Below are positions 7,098 through 64,000 of a stretch of 64,000 nucleotides of DNA, piece by piece. Location of the stretch: positions 442-64,441 of the IMG/VR virus record IMGVR_UViG_3300028591_000214; one strand, 5' to 3'. Each line of letters opens with the position of its first letter. The stretch's first letter is position 1. This DNA comes from a virus (taxonomy: Duplodnaviria; Caudoviricetes). A program made the position numbers and the translations under genes. A model generated the notes under the pieces. It saw only the letters and a program-made list of their open reading frames with translations. It was not told the origin of the DNA and did no database searches.

Positions 7098-7928
7098 TTA
7101 ATGAAATCCATAGTCTATAAAATAAACCTTTTCATAATCATCATTTACAGAAACATAGAAACATAAAGTGAATTTTTTATGCTGCTTATCTGTAATTATA
7201 AAATAATCACAAGCTGTTCCTGAATACTCATTCCGTAATAAATCTATCTTTTTAATTATTTCTGGATTTTCTGAAAAAAGCTCATTTAAATTATCATAAA
7301 TTAAATATGGACTTTTAGTTTTTAAATAATTATATAATTCATAATAAATTAATTCTGCATTGGTTTTACCGATATCTTCTGCAGCCTGTATTGTATGATA
7401 ATCCCAATCATAAAATGCGTCTTCTGTATATTCACATATATTTCCCGTTAAACTTGTTAAAAATAAATGTGAACCATCTTCTCTTTGAAATCCTATTAAT
7501 TGCGCCACCAGATTAATAATATAACAGACTAAATAACTATCATATGCCCAATCATCAGAATCACCAAAATCTTCGTCTTCACTATAATTTTTAGCAGGTT
7601 CATATAAATGTCCTATACATCTATATCCATGAGACTGATTATCTTCTTTAAAATAAGTAGAACTATATATTTCTGGATCGGGATTATTTATAAATTCTTT
7701 ATATTCCGGATATTTTTTCGTAAAATAATCAAAGAATTTATGTTTTACAATATCATCAAATTCTAAAACTGTATTTTTCCAATCATCTAATGAACTATAA
7801 TTTCCAAATTGGTTGGTTATTTTATTTTTAACATCATTAATTTTTAATATACCATTATCTGAAGAAATATTTTCTTCAGTATTCCAATTTATAAGAACTT
7901 CATTCAATATATTAATAACCGAGTTCAT
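7098..7928 (-). CDS. Hypothetical protein with the shared LNE(I/V)LI(E/N)W leader, 276 aa
   Basis: Starts MNSVINILNEVLINWNTEENISSDNGILKINDV. Acidic, aromatic-rich body not recognised. Confidence 0.75.
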   Translation of the reverse strand: MNSVINILNEVLINWNTEENISSDNGILKINDVKNKITNQFGNYSSLDDWKNTVLEFDDIVKHKFFDYFTKKYPEYKEFINNPDPEIYSSTYFKEDNQSHGYRCIGHLYEPAKNYSEDEDFGDSDDWAYDSYLVCYIINLVAQLIGFQREDGSHLFLTSLTGNICEYTEDAFYDWDYHTIQAAEDIGKTNAELIYYELYNYLKTKSPYLIYDNLNELFSENPEIIKKIDLLRNEYSGTACDYFIITDKQHKKFTLCFYVSVNDDYEKVYFIDYGFH

Positions 7929-8656: not shown

Positions 8657-9295
8657 TTAGCTTATAATGTTCAATTCTTTGCACTGATTTATAAAACCAC
8701 AAGACTTATTCATTAAGCTTATAGACGGAATAGATTTATATATTTGAATAGCCTCTCTATATTCTAATCCGTCTATAAAACAGATATCACATAAACTATG
8801 ACAATTATAAAATATATTAAACATATTCACAGGCGTCTCGGGCGGGTTTTGTTCCCTGATTAAATCCAAATCTAAAAATTTCTCAATCTTTACCAGATTT
8901 ACACAATTAAAAAATAATGCAGATAAATTTACTGGAATTCTTCGTTTGAAAATAATTTTTACGGTTTCATGCATCGGCTCATCTATATTATCTGTTATAA
9001 GCCCCATAAGAGATACTTGATCCTTTGATAATTTTGTATTTCCTATATAAATATCTACAATATCTAATATGTGTTTGCCGCAATTAACATATAATTTACT
9101 ATTTAAATTAAACAATGTTTTAGGATTAATCAGTTTAATCCCTTTCCAAATAAATCCTTGCTGATATTTGGCAATTATTGTACCATCAGATAATTGAGAT
9201 TTGACATCTATAGTATTAATAATTCCTTCTTCCTCCGGCATGGTATTATCACCCCATGCTATTAAAACCTTATTTAATATATTTGTATTAATCAT
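8657..9295 (-). CDS. Leader-family protein with degenerate BspA/DUF285-type repeats, 212 aa
   Basis: Leader MINTNILNKVLIAWGDN...EGIINTIDV. Repeats NLSALFFNCVNL and NMFNIFYNCHSL. Confidence 0.7.
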   Translation of the reverse strand: MINTNILNKVLIAWGDNTMPEEEGIINTIDVKSQLSDGTIIAKYQQGFIWKGIKLINPKTLFNLNSKLYVNCGKHILDIVDIYIGNTKLSKDQVSLMGLITDNIDEPMHETVKIIFKRRIPVNLSALFFNCVNLVKIEKFLDLDLIREQNPPETPVNMFNIFYNCHSLCDICFIDGLEYREAIQIYKSIPSISLMNKSCGFINQCKELNIIS

Positions 9296-12129: not shown

Positions 12130-12166
12130 AAAATAAATGACTGTAATATTACAGTCATTTATTTTT
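12129..12166. terminator. Bidirectional intrinsic terminator; perfect 38-bp palindrome
   Basis: aaaaataaatgactgtaat|attacagtcatttattttt lies between convergent genes. Confidence 0.8.
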
Positions 12167-12923
12167 AGCATTTTGGGATCACTAACCTATCAGGATCTAA
12201 ATTAGACGGGAGATTTTTAAAACATATAAAATCAAATATATTAAAATTTGTATTTTTAACTATATTAAATGTTCTTAACCTATAACCAATAATATTACCA
12301 TCTGAAGAAATACGCGGTTTTCCACCCTTTGGTTTCCATGTTTTATAATCGATTACGAGTTTTTTATTATTATCCAGTTTAGATAAAGATACACAATTAT
12401 CAAATATTTCATTTATGCTTCTTAATTTTGAAGTGTTCCATTTAGATAAATCCCCTATATCCTCTAAATCAGAACAAAAAACAAACATCCCAATCATAGA
12501 ATCAACTTTACTGGTATTCCATGTATTTAATCCTATAATTCTTTTTAGACCTTTACAATCATAAAAACAATAATTAAAATCTGTACAACCTGTTGTATCC
12601 CAATGAGATACATTAATAATTTCTGGATATTGCTTTACATCAAGATCTTCAAATAAAGAAGTTAATATATATTGTTTCCCTTCTATATTAGAAAGAGATA
12701 TAACTCTCAAATCAGCAACCTTAGATCCATTATTTATAGATTCATTTATCTTTTGTTCTATAATATCTGATAAACTTTTGAAATTTGTTGGATAATATAT
12801 ACACTTAATTTTAGATGTCGAAAGTTTATCCATCTCAGAAATTACCGAAGATGTCTGTATAATAGTATCATTTGAATCTAATATATTATCCCATTCAATC
12901 AGTATTTCATTTAAATATTTCAC
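12165..12923 (-). CDS. Leader-family protein with BspA-like/DUF285 repeats, 252 aa (GTG start)
   Basis: Leader [13 protein letters not shown]. Repeats SHWDTTGCTDFNYCFYDC, NTWNTSKVDSMIGMFVFC and SKWNTSKLRSINEIFDNC. Confidence 0.85.
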   Translation of the reverse strand: MKYLNEILIEWDNILDSNDTIIQTSSVISEMDKLSTSKIKCIYYPTNFKSLSDIIEQKINESINNGSKVADLRVISLSNIEGKQYILTSLFEDLDVKQYPEIINVSHWDTTGCTDFNYCFYDCKGLKRIIGLNTWNTSKVDSMIGMFVFCSDLEDIGDLSKWNTSKLRSINEIFDNCVSLSKLDNNKKLVIDYKTWKPKGGKPRISSDGNIIGYRLRTFNIVKNTNFNIFDFICFKNLPSNLDPDRLVIPKC

Positions 12924-13516
12924 TACTTTAGTTGAATTAATTTTGCACCGTAAAATGTAGGATTAGATAATGCACTCTCAAATTGTATTCTCTTAAATTT
13001 GTTTATATCTTCGACATATACCGTTTGAAGGTTTAAACACTTGTCAAAGGCAAATTCACCAATCTCAGTCACCGAGTTGGGGATGGTCACCGAGGTCAAG
13101 CCACTGCAATACCAGAAGGCACTTTTGCCAATCGAAGTCACCGAGTTGGGGATGGTCACCGAGGTTAAATTTTCACATTGATAAAATGTATACTTATCAA
13201 TTTCTTTAACCTTGTCAAAACCTTCTATATATACTCTATATTCACCTGGTTCATATTCATTTACTGTATATCCATCTTCATCTAATTGAACATGTTCACT
13301 GTTTATATAGACTTTATCTTTATATTCAGAATATATAATATTATCATGGTATATATCTACTGTACTATTAAATATTTTTATAAATCCAGATTCATCTATT
13401 TTATAGACAAGCTGATATTTCATTTGGTTTTCTACATCAGATGCTTTAATGATTCCTGAATCCTCTATATCAGGATTATTATCCCATTCGATTAATATTT
13501 CGTTTAGATATTTCAT
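12923..13516 (-). CDS. Leader-family BspA-type leucine-rich repeat (LRR_5) protein, 197 aa
   Basis: [13 protein letters not shown] leader and two [15 protein letters not shown] repeats. Confidence 0.9.
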
Positions 13517-14169
13517 TATAATAATTGAATAAATTTTATATATAACTCACATACCTCTAATATATCATTAAACCATTTTTTAATAATTGTTTCATTTCCT
13601 TTAGGATTATTTGTTTCCATTTTTACTATAAAAAAATAAAATTCATCATTTCCTATTTCAGCGGGATGATCTTCTATTTCTAAAGAATTACTATTAAAAT
13701 TTTTAATTAAAAATTTTTCAAACTTTTTATAATGTTTATAAAGATGAGATTCTGTATTTCTATCATCTATATAAATTGCAAATGAAAAATTTGGAGGAAA
13801 CTGCCATCCAGAATCTTTATCTAATAATCCTCCTTCTGTTGATGTTGCCCAATCATAAAATATATCTACAGGTGTATCAAAAAAATACTCCATTTCAAAA
13901 GGATTAATAGAATTATGATTATATTTTAAACCCTGCCACATATATCTGTGCAATACTTCGGGAGTTTTTAACCAAATTAAAAAATTATATTCCCTAGAAT
14001 CTACTCCTTTAACTTTAAGAATCTTATTTATAATATTATAATAATCTTCTAATTTAACTAAAAATTCAGTTAAATATAATCTTTTTTTAATATTAGAGCT
14101 CTTAATAATTCCAGTATCTTCAACAGTTGAATTATCCCATTCAATTAATATTTCATTCAAATACTTCAT
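13516..14169 (-). CDS. Leader-family hypothetical protein, 217 aa
   Basis: [27 protein letters not shown] leader. Payload not recognised. Translationally coupled to both neighbours. Confidence 0.8.
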
Positions 14170-15053
14170 TTATTTAATTCAATCAATTTTGCACCGTAAC
14201 ATGTCGGGTTTGAATATTCATTTCCAAATTTTATTTCATTAAATTTATTTATATCTTCTACATAGACTTTTTTAAGATTAGGGCAGCAATAGAAAGCACC
14301 GTCGTCAATAGACGTCACTGAGTTGGGGATAGTTACTGAGGTTAGGTAAGTACAACTACAGAAAGCATAGGGAGCAATCTTCCTCACTGAAGCAGGGATA
14401 ATAGTCTTCTTGCAACCGCAAATTAATGTCCTAGTAGTAGTCTCTATTATAGCGTTACAGTTCTTGCGAGAGTCATATTTAGGGTTTCCTTTCTCTACTA
14501 CAATAGAAGTCAATCTGGAGCAATTAGAGAAAACATACTTATCAATCGAAATCACCGAGTTAGGTATAACCATTGATATTAATCTGATACACCCGTTGAA
14601 AGCACAAAGACCAATCGAAGTTACTGAATCGGGGATAATAATACTAGTCAAATCTTTGCAACGACTAAAGGCATAATTGTCAATCTTCTTCACTGAATTG
14701 GGAATAATCACTGATGTCAAATCTTTGCAACGTGAGAATGCATACTCATATAGTTCTTTAAGCCTATCAAAATCTTCTATATATACACGGTATTCACCTG
14801 GTTCATATTCATTTACTGTAAATCCATCTTTATCTAATTGAACATGTTCTCCGTGTATATAGACTTTATCTTTAAATTCAGAATATATATAACTATAACC
14901 ATCAAATATTTTTATTTTTCCTGTTTTATCCAGTTTATAGATAAGATAATATTTCATTTCATTTGCTACAGCAGACGCTTTAATAAGTCCTGAATCTTCA
15001 ATATCAGAATTATCCCATTCGATTAAAATCTTATTTAATATATTAGCATTCAT
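14166..15053 (-). CDS. Leader-family BspA-type LRR protein, 295 aa
   Basis: Leader MNANILNKILIEWDN. About five IPNSV/IPDSV repeats plus the insert VEKGNPKYDSRKNCNAIIET. Confidence 0.9.
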   Translation of the reverse strand: MNANILNKILIEWDNSDIEDSGLIKASAVANEMKYYLIYKLDKTGKIKIFDGYSYIYSEFKDKVYIHGEHVQLDKDGFTVNEYEPGEYRVYIEDFDRLKELYEYAFSRCKDLTSVIIPNSVKKIDNYAFSRCKDLTSIIIPDSVTSIGLCAFNGCIRLISMVIPNSVISIDKYVFSNCSRLTSIVVEKGNPKYDSRKNCNAIIETTTRTLICGCKKTIIPASVRKIAPYAFCSCTYLTSVTIPNSVTSIDDGAFYCCPNLKKVYVEDINKFNEIKFGNEYSNPTCYGAKLIELNK

Positions 15054-15064
15054 ATTATATTTAT

Positions 15065-15098
15065 AAAAAAAATCTCATACTTAAATTAAGTATGAGAT
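15065..15098 (-). terminator. Intrinsic terminator after nrdJ
   Basis: atctcatacttaa-a-ttaagtatgagat inverted repeat with an A8 run on plus (U-tract on minus). Confidence 0.8.
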
Positions 15099-15122: not shown

Positions 15123-17765
15123 TTATCCACATTTAGACCAACCGCAATCCATACAATGAATACAACCGTTTTCTCTTACAAGTTTACCTCCACAATCTGG
15201 ACAAACTTCTCCTTCAATAATCTGTTCTTTAACATATTTAAGAAGAATTCTTCTCATCGCTGAGCTGAATGACGCTATATTATCATCTATCTTCTCAACA
15301 GTCTTACAGATAAATTTAATGTTCGCGCCATGTCTCATGAGCATCGATGACATTAAAGATAATGTATATTCTTCATTTGTAAGATCACTTGATATATTTT
15401 CAATAGTCAATTCATCTGATTTAAATGTATAATATCCTCTCCTTACTTTTGTGATTGTTCCCTTATGCTGGTTATAATTAGTCTTCTCATCATCTTTAGG
15501 CTTATAAAGGAATACCTCATAAGGCTTATCTTCAAATAATCCGACAATCACAAAGAATTTCTCTCCTTTAACACTTGTCACATAGAAATCAGCTTCCAAT
15601 GTCTTTGGACGTTTAGGAGCATCAATATTATTGAGAAACTTAGCTTCCTCTTTCTTTTCTTCTCTCTGTACAAGAATACCTTCTCTGCAACCGTCACGAT
15701 AGACTGTAATACCTTTAAGACCGTTTTTCCATGCTGTCATATAGATATTAGAAACCTCTTCTTCAGTTACTTCATTAGGAAGATTTACAGTTGATGAAAT
15801 TGAATGCTGTGTATAATATTTCTGAACAATACCTTGAAGCTCTACACGTTTTTCCCAGTCAATATCCTGTGCACATGCCCCATACCATGGAGAAGCCTTA
15901 TAAATCTTTTCCCATTGTTTTTCTGCCAATCCGTCAAACTGATCATAATATTCTTTCATATTTCCAGCCATTACCCACCTCTCAAGTTGTGGATGAACAA
16001 CTACATATTCAGAAAATTTAACTCCTAATTTATCAATATAATCAACTCTGTCAGATTCATCTACACATTTTTTACGACGGGTATAATAAGGCATGAATAA
16101 TGGTTCAATACCAGAAGTCGTTCTTGTCATTAATGATACACTGCCTGCCGGCGGAATTGTAGTGGCGCAAATATTTCTGCGGCCATAAGTCATCATTCTT
16201 TTCCATTGTTTAGGAAATTCATCTTTAATGAAATTATACCATTCATTCGCGTCTACAATTTCAAGACCAATAGATTCATCTGGAAATTTTCCGCGTTCAA
16301 TAGCCATATCAGCCTGACAATCTAAAATAGCAGATGTTAATATTTTACAAACATTCTTAACTATTTCATTTCCTTCTTCAGTAGCGAATTTTACATTTAA
16401 TGCTGCGATCATATCCGCCAATGCAGTAAATCCTAATCCTACTCTTCTGCCAGATATACCTTTGGCTAAAATTTCTTTCCAGACTTTTACACCGAATTCA
16501 TCATCTTTGACTTCTTCGATAATCTTGGATACTGCTTCATTCTCAAGCTCCACAAGATCATCTCCAAGACGCATCGCCTCATATGCAATATTGTATAATA
16601 ATTCATTATCTATACAAGAATTATGCGTAAATGGATCTCTAATAAATGAAAGTAAATTTAAGTTAATAAGTCTACATGATTCATTTCCAGACATATATAT
16701 CTCCCCACATGGGTTGCAACTTACTCCCATATATTTTGGATAAATTCCATCAGGTGAATAATTATGCATTTTATCACAGAAAATAATTCCAGGTTCTGCG
16801 GTATTCCAAGCACAGTGAATTAATTTATTCCATAATTCTTTTGCTTTAACTTTTTTACAATACCCAATTTTCAGTATAGATGAAAACGGTGTATCTGTAT
16901 ATAATACTCTGTATAATGTATTATATTTTAAATCATTCTTATCTACCTGCTTATTTGTTTCTAAATCATAGCATGAATCATAATTATCTTCTAAATTAAA
17001 TCTTACGTCAATGGGCCATTTTAACAGAAAATCTCTATCATCCTCTACTGCATGCATAAATTCATCTGTAACCTGTACAGATACATTAGCTCCTGTTACT
17101 TTAGTAAGATCCTGTTTCTTTTCTATAAATTCTTGAATATCAGGATGTAATATATTCATTGAAATCATTAATGCTCCACGTCTGCCTTGTTGAGCAACCT
17201 CATTAGTTACATCTGAACATACATCCATAAATGATGCAGCTCCTGTACTTGTGATAGCCGCGTTATTAACTTTGGCACCTCTGGGACGTAAATTAGAAAG
17301 ATCATACCCTACACCGCCCCGGCGTTTCATAAGTTCTGTCTGATAAAGCCTTGTAAGATTAATTGAACTATATGAATCTTCTGGTGAAGGTAGTACGAAA
17401 CAGTTTGACAATGATACAGGTTTCTCAGATCCTAATCCTGACATAACTGAACCTGCAGGGACAATATATTTAAAATCCTTAAATAACTGATAAATCTTTT
17501 CTTCATCGAGCTGTTGACGTTTATACCAATAATCAGAGAATTTAGGTTTATCATTTATAAAATTCCGCCATGTTTTCTTTTTATATAAAGGTTTATCCGT
17601 AAATTTTTTCTCTACTCTCGCAAATTCCTTTGCCATACGCCTATGCATGTCATCTGGAGTTTCTTCAATCAAGTCGCCGTTTATATCTCTTTTAGCGTAC
17701 TTGTCTTTCCAAACATTTGCGGCTAACTCATCATTGTTGAAATATTTTAAAAGATTTTCTGTCAT
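15123..17765 (-). CDS. nrdJ: Class II (adenosylcobalamin-dependent) ribonucleotide reductase, 880 aa
   Basis: SLSNCFV, GGVGYDLS.LRP.GA.V, SCNPCGEI, TTIPPAGSVS, TTSGIEP, GLKGITVYRDGCR and a C-terminal CPDCG...C..CMDCGWSKC zinc ribbon. Confidence 0.92.
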   Translation of the reverse strand: MTENLLKYFNNDELAANVWKDKYAKRDINGDLIEETPDDMHRRMAKEFARVEKKFTDKPLYKKKTWRNFINDKPKFSDYWYKRQQLDEEKIYQLFKDFKYIVPAGSVMSGLGSEKPVSLSNCFVLPSPEDSYSSINLTRLYQTELMKRRGGVGYDLSNLRPRGAKVNNAAITSTGAASFMDVCSDVTNEVAQQGRRGALMISMNILHPDIQEFIEKKQDLTKVTGANVSVQVTDEFMHAVEDDRDFLLKWPIDVRFNLEDNYDSCYDLETNKQVDKNDLKYNTLYRVLYTDTPFSSILKIGYCKKVKAKELWNKLIHCAWNTAEPGIIFCDKMHNYSPDGIYPKYMGVSCNPCGEIYMSGNESCRLINLNLLSFIRDPFTHNSCIDNELLYNIAYEAMRLGDDLVELENEAVSKIIEEVKDDEFGVKVWKEILAKGISGRRVGLGFTALADMIAALNVKFATEEGNEIVKNVCKILTSAILDCQADMAIERGKFPDESIGLEIVDANEWYNFIKDEFPKQWKRMMTYGRRNICATTIPPAGSVSLMTRTTSGIEPLFMPYYTRRKKCVDESDRVDYIDKLGVKFSEYVVVHPQLERWVMAGNMKEYYDQFDGLAEKQWEKIYKASPWYGACAQDIDWEKRVELQGIVQKYYTQHSISSTVNLPNEVTEEEVSNIYMTAWKNGLKGITVYRDGCREGILVQREEKKEEAKFLNNIDAPKRPKTLEADFYVTSVKGEKFFVIVGLFEDKPYEVFLYKPKDDEKTNYNQHKGTITKVRRGYYTFKSDELTIENISSDLTNEEYTLSLMSSMLMRHGANIKFICKTVEKIDDNIASFSSAMRRILLKYVKEQIIEGEVCPDCGGKLVRENGCIHCMDCGWSKCG

Positions 17766-28016: not shown

Positions 28017-29273
28017 ATGGCAAGACCAAAGAAAAATACGGAAAATATAGAAAGCGGATCAATTTTTGATCTGGTTAAATCAATAGATAATGAGGCAGAG
28101 ATTATAGCTGATAGTGCATATAGTAATATTAAGGATTATATAAGTACGGGAAATTATATTCTGAACGCTGCAATAACAGGGGATATGTTTAAAGGCCTGC
28201 CTACTGGAAGAATCTGTTCATTTTTTGGGCCTAATCAGACAGGCAAGAGTTTCCTTCAATGTTCAGTATGCCGTGAAGCTCAGAAGAAAGGTTATACTCC
28301 AATTATTCTTGACAGCGAAGGATCATTAGATGCAACATTTGTTTCAAGAATAGGAGTAGATCCTACAAAATGCATTATTAAACAGGTTAATACTATTTCA
28401 GAGACTTCTAAATTTATCGCTAATTTATGTAAGGCTTTGGAGGAACAGGAAAAGAAGACAGGTACACATGATAAAGTTATTATCGTATTGGATTCTCTCG
28501 GAAACTTGACATCAGATAAAGAAAAAGAAGATATTATTGCGGGTAACCAGAAAAGAGATCTTACAAAGGCACAAGAAGTCAAAGCAATGTTCAGGGTAAA
28601 TGCCACTCCTCTTGCGAGATTAGGAATTCTTTGGATTGTTATTAATCATTCTTATGCGTCAATTGGAAGTTATGTCCCCACTCAAGTTCAGGCATCAGGT
28701 TCTGGTATTCAGTATAATTCATCTGTGACATTAGAATTATCTACAAAGAAACTTGAGGATAAGGAGAATGATATTCTCGGATCTAAAAAGCAAGGTAATG
28801 AGACGGCCATTAAAAATGGTGTACTGATTACAGCAAAACCTGTAAAATCAAGGTTTACAATTCCAAGGAAAGTTTCGTTCCAGATACCATTCCATAAAAA
28901 GATGAATCCTTATGTGGGATTAGAAGAGTATTTAAATTGGGATAATGCAGGAATAATGTTTGGTAAATTATATACAGAAGCTGAATATTTGAAATTAAAA
29001 CCAGCTGAACAGAATCAATGTAAAGAATTCGAATATGAAGGAGAAAAGCTTTACGCGATGGAAAAGAAAACGGCTATGGGTAAAGTCGGCATGATTGTAA
29101 GACATTTAGGGCAGCAACTTTCCCTGCAGGATTTCTATTCAGAGAAAGTGTTTACTCCTGAATTTATGGAACAGATAAATGAGACTATTATAAAACCGAT
29201 GTTCCAGCTACCTGATCATGATTCATTCGATGATATTAAAGAGTTGGAAGAAATTATGCAGATTGAGAATTAA
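28017..29273 (+). CDS. uvsX: UvsX/RecA-like recombinase, 418 aa
   Basis: ISTGNYILNAAITG, P-loop GPNQTGKS, LDSEG, IVLDSLGNL, VINH and SGSGIQYNSS. Confidence 0.9.
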   Translation: MARPKKNTENIESGSIFDLVKSIDNEAEIIADSAYSNIKDYISTGNYILNAAITGDMFKGLPTGRICSFFGPNQTGKSFLQCSVCREAQKKGYTPIILDSEGSLDATFVSRIGVDPTKCIIKQVNTISETSKFIANLCKALEEQEKKTGTHDKVIIVLDSLGNLTSDKEKEDIIAGNQKRDLTKAQEVKAMFRVNATPLARLGILWIVINHSYASIGSYVPTQVQASGSGIQYNSSVTLELSTKKLEDKENDILGSKKQGNETAIKNGVLITAKPVKSRFTIPRKVSFQIPFHKKMNPYVGLEEYLNWDNAGIMFGKLYTEAEYLKLKPAEQNQCKEFEYEGEKLYAMEKKTAMGKVGMIVRHLGQQLSLQDFYSEKVFTPEFMEQINETIIKPMFQLPDHDSFDDIKELEEIMQIEN

Positions 29274-32487: not shown

Positions 32488-33075
32488 ATGAGTATAAAAA
32501 TTCGCAGGTATAAAAGATTGAATGAAGATGATCAGGCGCAGCCTCAAGCTCCCGCTCCAGATCAAAATCAACAAAATAATGGTCAGCAGCAACAACAGCA
32601 ACAGCAGCCACAAGGAGATGGTCCAAATTATACTGAAATTAAAAATCAGATTATAAAGGCTAATGAAACTATCCTTCAAGTTATGTTAGAGGCCATTGAT
32701 AAAAATGCTAAACCTATTCAAGGTGTAGGACAGGCAGATCAGAAAATTGAGGGTTCTGATGCTGTATCAAAAGCTTATCAGAATCTTACACAAAATAAGA
32801 ATTATAATGCAGTGGGACAATTTTTAACAGCATTAAATAATTATGGAGCTTCTATTGTAAAACTTGAACAACAGGCACAAGGTCAGCCTAATCAAGAAGG
32901 AAATGATCAGAATCAACAGCAACAGCAGCAAAATCAGCAGCAAAATCAGCAGCAACCTCAGCAGCAAAATGGTGTAAGTGCATTTGGTCAAAATCAGTTT
33001 GGAGGATTAAGTAAAGCTCAACAATTTGATCAAAGTGCAGCAAATATTAGCAATAAATGGATGCCTCAACAATAA
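32488..33075 (+). CDS. Gln/Asn-rich low-complexity protein, putative internal head protein, 195 aa
   Basis: RLNEDD followed by poly-Q tracts at both ends of a helical core. Confidence 0.75.
   Translation: MSIKIRRYKRLNEDDQAQPQAPAPDQNQQNNGQQQQQQQQPQGDGPNYTEIKNQIIKANETILQVMLEAIDKNAKPIQGVGQADQKIEGSDAVSKAYQNLTQNKNYNAVGQFLTALNNYGASIVKLEQQAQGQPNQEGNDQNQQQQQQNQQQNQQQPQQQNGVSAFGQNQFGGLSKAQQFDQSAANISNKWMPQQ
32923..32970 (+). repeat. 12-bp tandem repeat (cagcagcaaaat) x4 encoding QQQN
   Basis: Three exact copies plus one variant (cagcagcaacct). Confidence 0.85.
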
Positions 33076-63408: not shown

Positions 63409-63445
63409 ATAAGTTGCTTCTATTATAGGAGTAACTTATTTTTTT
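63409..63445 (+). terminator. Intrinsic terminator after the tail tube gene
   Basis: ataagttgcttcta pairs with taggagtaacttat (two G-U pairs), followed by a T run. Confidence 0.75.
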
Positions 63446-63456
63446 ATAAATATAAT

Positions 63457-64000
63457 ATGAATAACAATATATTAAATAGAATACTGATTGAGTGGAAAGA
63501 TTCTGATATAGAGGATTCTGGATTAATTAGAGTGTCTGATGTAGAACACTGGATAAAATATCACTTTGTCTATAAAATAGATGAGCCGGGGCAAATAAAA
63601 ATATTTAATAATAATAGTGTATATGATGATTATATACAAGAATTTAAAGATAAAGTCTATATACACGGAGAACATGTTCAATTAGATAAAGATGGATATA
63701 CAGTAAATGAATATGAACCAGGTGAATATAGAGTATATATAGAAGGTTTTGATAAGGTTAAAGAAATTATTAGTTGTGCTTTTGAATTTTGCAGGAGCCT
63801 TTCTTTAGTGACCATCCCCAACTCAGTGACTTTGATTGACAAATGGGCCTTCAATAGTTGCACTGGCTTGACCTCGGTGACCATCCCCAACTCGGTGACG
63901 ACGATTGGCTACGCAGCCTTCTCTTATTGCGAAGGCCTGACTTCAGTGACCATCCCCAGCTCGGTGGTTGAGATTGACGTAGGTGTCTTTGGTGGTTGCA
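63457..64000 (+). CDS. Leader-family BspA-type LRR protein, truncated by the window edge
   Basis: Not in the ORF track. [29 protein letters not shown]...[28 protein letters not shown] followed by three or more VTIPNSVT.I...AF repeats. Confidence 0.9.

Follow-up and report, generated by a model that had tools for sequence, protein, structure and literature searches.

The DNA analysed here (the window, 64,000 nucleotides of a tailed-phage genome) carries three genes, g13, g14 and g63, in which an AT-rich N-terminal scaffold is followed by leucine-rich repeat (LRR) units, all of the LRR_5 type (Table 1). An earlier note, made from the letters alone, had described these genes, the cap common to the two complete ones and the differing numbers of units; the open reading frames and motifs are as it described them, with 2 units in g13, about 6 in g14 and at least 3 in g63. 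Each module comprises a flexible leader of ~30 aa, a phage-specific N-terminal scaffold of ~70 aa, a variable number of 23-aa units and a phage-specific C-terminal cap, and modules either form genes of their own, alone or directly abutting, or are joined in polyproteins. The leader also opens four genes in the window that do not match LRR_5, namely g12, g13.5 and those at 7098-7928 and 8657-9295. A resemblance of the leader to a T4-style capsid-targeting or protease-cleavage signal was considered and set aside; a prohead protease was not recognised in the loci examined. The string TATAAATA upstream of g14 and g63 was likewise considered as a T4-type late promoter and rejected, since only four genes carry it within 60 nt of their start.

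Table 1 Genes and parts of the LRR module family in the window, with the neighbouring leader-bearing genes.
Feature	Position	Strand	Description
g12	12165..12923	-	Leader-bearing neighbour; DUF285 repeats (55.6 bits), native codon usage
g13	12923..13516	-	197 aa: leader, scaffold, 2 LRR units, cap; LRR_5 77.9 bits
g13 C-terminal cap	12923..13033	-	Motif VYVEDINKF ... NPT.YGAKLI.L; GC3 0.21-0.26
g13 bacterial-type patch	13059..13168	-	Framework block, one variable loop, framework block; GC3 ~0.75
g13 pre-LRR scaffold	13172..13420	-	aa 33-115, AT-rich, phage-specific; GC3 0.04-0.17
g13.5	13516..14169	-	Leader-bearing neighbour; 217-aa payload without recognised domain
g14	14166..15053	-	295 aa, ~6 LRR units and insert; LRR_5 136.5 bits
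g14 LRR region	14283..14753	-	Intermediate GC3 (0.26-0.43)
g14 insert	14388-14501	-	Within LRR region; motif NPKYDSRKNCNAIIET
g63	63457..64000	+	LRR module gene continuing past contig end; LRR_5 77.5 bits
g63 leader	63457-63555	+	
g63 scaffold	63556-63768	+	
g63 units	from 63769	+	At least 3 GC-rich units

The 64 kb analysed here belong to a Lak-like megaphage of ruminant-gut origin, found in sheep and cattle gut samples, whose genome has 28% GC and measures 321 kb or more (the completeness of the window is 11% by CheckV). An independent contig of 320,940 bp is 99.3% identical to it across 20.9 kb; g13.5 differs from that strain by a divergent patch, and a shorter open reading frame was called there. 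Kinship to the Lak megaphages is distant: the portal protein of L032, a syntenic relative, has 48% amino acid identity to Lak portals, and "Lak-like" refers to structural hallmark genes and genome size, not to a formal taxon. Further points in common are the gut habitat, the size of the genome, its very low GC content and a nearly unused TAG stop codon; the stop of g13 is the sole TAG stop in the window, with a TGA immediately after it. Lak records were absent among the best 25 matches listed for tblastn with g14, and no matches were obtained when 24 kb of the window were compared with GenBank phages by megablast, or in IMG/VR scans with a 35-mer and with the scaffold protein. Our literature searches turned up no account of LRR families in Lak-like phages, and the term "leucine-rich" is absent from the Lak papers searched. 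T4-like genes are present in this phage lineage, and the window codes for a UvsX-like recombinase at 28017-29273.

At the protein level, all three genes match LRR_5 (PF13306; Pfam cut-off 27.7 bits). An AF2 model of g13 (pLDDT 85) folds the scaffold confidently together with the solenoid, and the best fold matches found with Foldseek are the BspA-type LRR structures 4gt6, 4fs7 and 6mlx, with an rmsd of 1.0–1.4 Å over 67–82 columns for 4gt6 and 6mlx. The unit framework L..V.IP.SV..IG..AF..C.. recurs in 125 different units from phages and 253 from bacteria, and the same positions (12, 15, 16, 19, 20 and 22) vary in both. Scaffold, cap and leader belong to a family that makes up just 59 clusters out of 1.84 billion representatives, and the member contigs that we fetched all carry phage genes. 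Scaffold hits confined to phages had been named as support in the earlier note, and the scaffold, cap and leader indeed lack any bacterial DNA match. By inspection, the phage proteins have no export or sorting signal; the model gives their hydrophilic N-termini as helix plus disorder. Our leading guess as to their role, which we offer tentatively, is that they are putative late-expressed ligand-binding modules tethered by the leader.

The base composition of these genes is markedly uneven. GC content is 27.8% at 13231-13320, 51.8% at 13061-13170 and 52.4% at 63791-64000, compared with 28.4% in the whole window, and the hand counts reported earlier are accurate on recomputation. GC at third codon positions (GC3) is 0.65–0.87 in the units of g13 and g63 against 0.19 in the other genes of the window. 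The cassette segments themselves reach 0.73–0.87; the same peptides written in the genome's own codon usage would have an expected GC3 of only 0.13–0.21, so amino-acid composition is insufficient to account for the cassette codons that had been singled out as atypical (ACC TCG GTG ACC ATC CCC AAC), each of which makes up just 3–10% of its synonymous set. Across 3757 segments of 30 codons (mean GC3 0.19, s.d. 0.09), values of 0.6 or above occurred only in the g13 and g63 cassettes, and the LRR region of g14 is intermediate (0.2–0.53). The 35-nt string noted earlier as common to the 13-kb and 63-kb genes is indeed exact at 13068-13102 (minus strand) and 63865-63899 (plus strand), with matches in 0 of 100 shuffles. 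GC3 tracks nucleotide identity to bacterial loci (Spearman 0.72; 113 tiled 69-nt segments from seven family genes), and in this tiled comparison leader, scaffold and cap lie at background identity.

Among bacterial loci retrieved with a phage-derived 29-mer, a comparison therefore biased towards similarity, the closest counterpart of the g13 patch lies in a Muribaculaceae MAG (G001:C8:53071-53180), to which g13 nt 349-458, exactly the GC-rich patch, is identical at 104 of 110 nt (94.5%). The match contains a 57-nt exact run that includes high-entropy variable residues, and it exceeds the identity of the G001 segment to any other bacterial genome compared (92.7%). The bacterial gene encodes a surface protein with a signal peptide and LRRs, more than 882 aa long. 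Among 185,579 species genomes, the 29-mer framework block has exact matches in 26 stretches. All of these lie in Bacteroidales MAGs, and every one of these MAGs with a stated source comes from a herbivore gut. Part of the phage–bacterial identity reflects the shared framework, because bacterial units are consensus-like themselves, and no donor at ≥99% identity to the patch was found among the bacterial genomes compared. Cassette hits to chromosomes of Prevotella or other Bacteroidales had been named as support in the earlier note. Lak megaphages infect Prevotella (PMC6784885, PMC8346664), whereas cassette similarity here leads to Muribaculaceae. When 401 genomes of that family were searched with 20 kb of the window for signs of a host or of spacers, only ribonucleotide-reductase and short repetitive matches came back.

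One may postulate that the GC-rich units arose within the phage, through GC-biased gene conversion or concerted evolution among its own units and without bacterial input, and a multi-copy family with identical 29–35-nt blocks within and between paralogues would fit such a process. It would not, however, recreate the synonymous choices and variable residues of a bacterial gene, as the near-identity of the g13 patch would demand, and the paralogues are just ~80% identical to one another; we regard this explanation as very improbable.

The LRR region of g14 is 68–75% identical to bacterial loci across 200–440 nt, and its insert unit is 88% identical to L005 over 69 nt; the G001 protein also has an insert of this kind. 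For the g63 cassette, identity to bacterial loci is 84%, although its junction with the scaffold rests on the end of one contig, without a second assembly, and this cassette could be a chimeric tail. More generally, bacterial reads might have been threaded into phage contigs at common k-mers. Assemblies often break at LRR genes, the g63 cassette stands at a contig end, and JGI metagenome scans for its junction and cassette strings gave no matches. The g13 patch, by contrast, is internal and in frame with phage DNA on both sides, and it is identical in the independent 321-kb assembly, which comes from another sample. Contigs of other samples and studies (Logan) bridge both of its junctions from unique phage sequence, and the patch is therefore not a chimera; a 20–100-fold jump in depth at the patch arises because other organisms share the sequence. 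GC-rich units also occur mid-contig in P0006 and in a polyprotein. Assembly error as a general explanation thus has only a very slight chance of being correct.

Comparison of strains and relatives provides a further line of evidence. Orthologues of g63 with ~98% identical flanks hold different, AT-rich units: identity is 97.6–98.1% in the flanks, 81–83% in the scaffold and ~60% in the cassette, and blastn homology to the syntenic orthologue ends at 63768. One unit exists in three versions in three strains, with adjoining units nearly identical, and P0006 and P0007, versions of one paralogue from different strains at the same locus, differ by exactly one 23-aa unit. In g14, six of the eight strain differences in the gene fall within one unit (14484-14562); an identical g14 protein is encoded on the 321-kb contig. 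The mosaicism at orthologous loci and the variation in repeat number that the earlier note had anticipated are thus both present, and the identical cassettes in related phages that would have spoken against it are not what we found. In L060, a distant syntenic relative, the units are AT-native (GC3 0.13–0.17) and have no bacterial nucleotide match. Against the earlier suggestion of recent capture, the LRR array itself is old, as its AT-adapted form in this relative indicates, and it is the overwriting of its units that is recent.

These comparisons also bear on a scenario in which a whole BspA-type gene was captured once, in the distant past, and ameliorated unevenly with no ongoing exchange, its units remaining GC-rich through constraint. 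The plan of N-cap, units and C-cap resembles bacterial BspA-type proteins, and g14 appears evenly part-ameliorated. The compositional signal sits at synonymous sites, however, as in the g13 patch, and neither wholly AT-native units in L060 nor wholly unlike units at orthologous loci with near-identical flanks would be expected under such a scenario. The edges of the g13 patch moreover coincide with framework blocks. A single ancient capture therefore appears improbable.

We favour the explanation that an old, multi-copy phage LRR family has recombined repeatedly, in short tracts, with LRR genes of bacteria and has also undergone unequal crossing-over, and we assign it a probability of roughly 70%. 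It builds on the foreign codon usage, the bacterial near-identity confined to units, the cassette differences at orthologous loci and the one-unit polymorphism observed here. Under this explanation, the module would be old in the phage lineage and its units would have been repeatedly overwritten in tracts of ~50–150 nt. The donor DNA would have been LRR surface-protein genes of gut Bacteroidales, for which the closest matches are in Muribaculaceae. We infer that exchange would take place while the phage infects a cell, as homologous recombination at the ~30-nt framework block, which phage and bacteria have in identical form; tracts so acquired would then drift back towards AT, and unit number would change through unequal crossing-over among 69-nt units. 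It is plausible that the donor is the phage's host, and also plausible that a UvsX-type recombinase is the agent. The overwriting of units is possibly selected, with the phage proteins binding what host adhesins bind or mimicking these adhesins; alternatively, it could be a by-product of homology.

The earlier note had gone further and proposed a mechanism like that of the lamprey variable lymphocyte receptors (VLRs), in which LRR units likewise vary in number and sequence between constant N- and C-terminal parts. Programmed diversification of this or a DGR-like kind, which would give each phage population a combinatorial repertoire of binders, could draw on the variable units between constant flanks, on the unit that is hypervariable across three strains and on the numerous joints and loose ends that metagenome contigs show at the cassette. 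Most of these, however, trace to paralogues and to bacterial LRR genes, and we do not read them as phage variants. Unlike lamprey VLRs, g13 and g14 are uninterrupted open reading frames, without an incomplete germline gene or coding gap. Silent partial cassettes were not seen, as tblastn finds LRR coding only in the three genes of the window (~11% of the genome), and other LRR copies of the genome lie in open reading frames; an RVT_1 match to a DGR reverse transcriptase is likewise absent from the 64-kb contig. Independent samples of the 99.3%-identical strain carry the 13-kb cassette unchanged, as judged from contigs, which hide rare variants. The variable positions, moreover, are those that vary in the bacterial family too. 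Change in the phage appears to be evolutionary and not somatic, with within-population hypervariation not seen in contigs, and programmed diversification is highly unlikely. We conclude that the phage LRR family is probably a case of evolutionary borrowing and not a new immune-like diversification system.

It is known that phage binding proteins evolve through segment swaps at conserved motifs, and that phages also acquire whole host genes. The favoured explanation would combine both routes, with tracts one or two units long, taken from bacterial surface-protein genes, repeatedly inserted into a phage-specific frame of old standing; many paralogues of this uncultured megaphage would be affected. 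If correct, it would provide a nucleotide-level signal of host or donor for Lak-like phages, which are as yet uncultured, as well as a natural way of re-specifying LRR binders, and it would mark a large family of leader–scaffold–LRR proteins for virion proteomics.

Among known systems, the BspA-type or TpLRR (LRR_5) proteins of Bacteroidales and other mucosal microbes share the 23-aa unit, the framework, the variable positions and the solenoid fold with the phage proteins, which differ from them in having no signal peptide or sorting domain by inspection, in their phage-specific leader, N-scaffold and C-cap, and in forming short modules or polyproteins of modules. That BspA-type genes move laterally between mucosal microbes is an earlier proposal (PMC2843621). 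The gp38 adhesins of T-even phages carry hypervariable segments between conserved glycine-rich motifs, and these segments are shuffled by recombination within or close to the motifs (PMC3157838). As is proposed for the phage family described here, the variable binding loops are separated by conserved blocks at which recombination also takes place, and a modular N-terminal attachment part is joined to a variable binding part. For gp38, however, the donors are other phages, whereas here they would be bacterial chromosomal genes, and the present family consists of LRR solenoids in many copies.

In Neisseria pilE/pilS and Borrelia vlsE, antigenic variation results from short conversion tracts copied through conserved flanking blocks. 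The copying of variant segments into an expressed gene in short tracts is similar to what we propose; high-frequency switching is not evidenced in the phage, and its donor copies would sit in the genome of another organism. A more speculative reading, which we consider rather unlikely, is that the host chromosome serves as an external cassette library, with repeated conversion from host LRR adhesin genes selected for shared binding or mimicry. If true, it would permit sequence-based host assignment for uncultured megaphages, and the phage family might then be viewed as an inter-genomic counterpart of cassette conversion of the pilE/pilS type.

The products of the three LRR module genes (g13, g14 and g63) are identified by sequence as BspA-type LRR proteins, in which 23-aa (69-nt) units follow a phage-specific scaffold and, in the two complete genes, precede a C-terminal cap; the scaffold and cap motifs claimed in an earlier note were both found as quoted. 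A four-gene abutting run includes g13 and g14. Three parts make up the AlphaFold model of g13 (pLDDT 85): residues 1-24 are a poorly defined leader, the scaffold is packed against the repeats as a confident domain, and the third part is a short solenoid. The repeats are structurally closest to 4gt6, 4fs7 and 6mlx, all of them solved BspA-type LRR proteins. Just 59 clusters, out of 1.84 billion representatives, belong to the scaffold family, and its more distant members carry DUF285 repeats, not LRR_5 units, after the scaffold. The leader (~30 aa; motif ILN.ILIEW, then DIEDSGII) opens seven window genes, including the neighbours g12 and g13.5. Upstream of g14 and g63 (15054-15076 and 63433-63456) we observed an identical string, a T run then TATAAATATAAT, 3' of a hairpin, and the duplication that formed these paralogues therefore took in the 5' region.

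Window genes that open with the leader motif, with LRR_5 matches where reported (Pfam, cut-off 27.7 bits).
Gene	Position	Strand	State	LRR_5 (bits)
	7098-7928			
	8657-9295			
g12	12165-12923			
g13	12923-13516	minus	complete	77.9
g13.5	13516-14169			
g14	14166-15053	minus	complete	136.5
g63	63457->64000	plus	continues past contig end	77.5

The source is a Lak-like megaphage of ruminants. The 64,441-bp contig (CheckV completeness 11%) is 99.34% identical across 20.9 kb to a 320,940-bp contig from a separate ENA assembly (L002). In GenBank, the portal protein of a syntenic relative finds its best match in the Lak megaphages (48% identity), and the public runs in which the locus occurs are gut metagenomes of sheep, cattle and goats. 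Among the window's gene products are a UvsX-like recombinase, clamp loader, helicase, NAD ligase, ribonucleotide reductase and baseplate wedge protein. Its genes end in TAA (48), TGA (5) or TAG (1), the sole TAG being the g13 stop (12923-12925), with TGA immediately after; as Lak phages, the nearest relatives, recode TAG, avoidance or recoding of this codon may apply here too.

The composition anomaly of the cassettes is real and specific. Earlier hand counts of GC for the scaffold and two cassettes were reproduced (27.8%, 51.8% and 52.4%, with 28.4% for the window), the 35-mer said to be common to g13 and g63 is exact in both, and each codon quoted as atypical makes up just 3-10% of its synonymous set. 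Amino-acid content, the competing cause that the note had itself raised, does not account for the pattern: GC3 is 0.65-0.87 in g13 and g63 units, against an expected 0.13-0.21 when the unit peptides are recoded with genome codon usage. Across 3757 sliding 30-codon windows from all genes (mean 0.19, sd 0.09), GC3 of at least 0.6 occurred only in these two cassettes; g14 units are intermediate (0.26-0.43), and the remaining window genes have a GC3 of 0.19. Separately, L002:10534-16424 comprises 6 kb without ORFs at about 40% GC, with 16 tRNA genes that mostly serve A/U-ending codons, so GC-rich cassette codons would depend on host tRNAs.

The GC-rich DNA resembles that of gut Bacteroidales. A 29-nt framework block common to g13 and g63 has 26 exact occurrences in the species-genome collection, every one of them in a Bacteroidales MAG (Muribaculaceae, 'Prevotellaceae' and Ca. 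Sodaliphilus); where the title gives a source, it is the rumen or the gut of a horse, deer, yak or buffalo. In blastn of g13 against bacterial loci, nt 349-458 alone align (identity up to 94.5%), which is precisely the GC-rich patch at 13059..13168 (-). The closest match, in a Muribaculaceae MAG (G001:C8:53071-53180), is identical at 104/110 positions; 57 consecutive nt agree exactly, and the match extends to residues at the positions that vary most in the family. Because no other bacterial genome compared exceeds 92.7% identity to this G001 segment, the phage patch nests within bacterial diversity. The G001 gene product (>882 aa) has a signal peptide, LRRs, an NPYYDS..CDAIIET insert and dockerin-like repeats; of 401 evenly sampled Bacteroidales genomes, G001 alone reached E <= 1e-30, and 12/301 genomes of its GTDB family reached E <= 1e-25. 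The separate comparison proposed earlier bore out the expectation that cassettes match Bacteroidales and the scaffold does not: across 113 tiles of 69 nt cut from seven family genes, GC3 correlated with identity to the bacterial loci (Spearman 0.72, p of about 3e-19), and all leader, scaffold and cap tiles stayed at background (11-20 matching bases). Over 69 nt, the insert unit of g14 shares 88% identity with a bacterial locus. Throughout, the bacterial loci had been retrieved with a phage-derived word, which biases these comparisons towards similarity. Elsewhere, two 25-110-nt stretches (about 32560-32615 and 32870-32970) match many genomes of the G001 family at 72-100% and resemble simple repeats.

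The patch is no assembly artefact, at any rate in g13. The copy in the independent 321-kb assembly differs at two positions only, both beyond the patch; Logan contigs from a sheep run and a 2013 gut run connect the patch to unique phage sequence on either side, and in a bovine strain (~5% divergent) one contig extends from g12 across the cap as far as 13154. Summed depth over 13018-13221 rises from about 12-40 to 784 and 2711 because similar sequence (at least 85% alike) is present in many other organisms of those samples. The g63 cassette could be a chimeric tail: its position is the very end of the contig, neither the 321-kb contig nor several Logan contigs extend to it, and its strings had no match in two metagenome scans. 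Paralogues located mid-contig elsewhere show the same pattern of GC-rich units.

An LRR module lies between a tail-tube-like gene and an FGE-sulfatase-like gene in all relatives retrieved. At the g63 locus, identity to three syntenic loci (L033-L035) is 97.6-98.1% in the flanks, 81-83% in the scaffold and about 60% in the units, and blastn homology stops at 63768, the first LRR codon. The orthologues' units are AT-rich (GC3 0.09-0.22) except for one (0.52), which has three versions in three strains, with 15 differences per 69 nt versus 1-2 in adjacent units. A distant syntenic relative (L060) has about eight units of GC3 0.13-0.17, with no bacterial match at the nucleotide level, so the array is ancestral in the phage and overwriting is secondary; the recent capture proposed earlier thus holds for overwriting with bacterial-type DNA and fails for the array itself. 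Two versions of one paralogue (P0006 and P0007), from one locus beside a gp13-like gene in different samples, are exactly one 23-aa unit apart. Overwriting would proceed by homologous recombination during infection via the common ~30-nt framework block, imported bacterial tracts would then decay AT-ward, and unequal crossing-over may act between units.

Strains also differ at other places. Relative to a 99.3%-identical strain, 22/138 differences fall in the 5' part of g13.5, including the leader (13868-14137), and the ORF called in that strain has 141 aa versus 217, indicating either a divergent patch or a decaying gene. Contigs from two runs join the g14 end to the g13 start with g13.5 exactly absent (13517 to 14173; shorter side 40 nt), representing either a deletion variant via leader recombination or a paralogous junction at another genomic site. 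In the ribonucleotide reductase gene, 45/138 strain differences lie inside 1 kb (16500-17500), and patchy inter-strain recombination is therefore not limited to LRR genes.

In relatives, the leader motif links modules within polyproteins that can reach 1369 aa or more. A single ORF of the 321-kb genome (L002:16424-20533(-), at least 1369 aa) holds at least four complete modules in series plus a non-LRR end domain, and in several relatives the LRR module is fused to a leader-bearing domain without assignment; the leader thus doubles as a linker between modules. The AlphaFold2 model of a fused junction leaves the leader as the sole low-confidence stretch (pLDDT 32-46), which gives it the look of a conserved linear motif and not of a folded domain; its conservation and flexibility suggest a role in docking or processing. 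By inspection, the g13, g14 and g63 proteins lack export signals, and some family copies adjoin structural genes (neck, tail tube, portal and baseplate). We assign a probability of about 40% to the LRR proteins being ligand-binding modules that are expressed late and tethered by the leader; possibly they are instead internal proteins that the phage injects, or bind host proteins in the cytoplasm.

The variable positions of the phage units are those of the bacterial family. The diversification akin to lamprey variable lymphocyte receptors (VLRs) envisaged earlier is not borne out: unlike in a VLR-like system, the g13 and g14 genes are complete, and the g13 cassette is identical in assembled contigs across samples of one strain; the window has no LRR coding outside the three genes, and the contig no reverse transcriptase. 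The closest working analogy is the T-even gp38 adhesin, in which recombination takes place at conserved motifs flanking hypervariable segments (PMC3157838), with the difference that the donors to the phage LRR genes would be bacterial genes.
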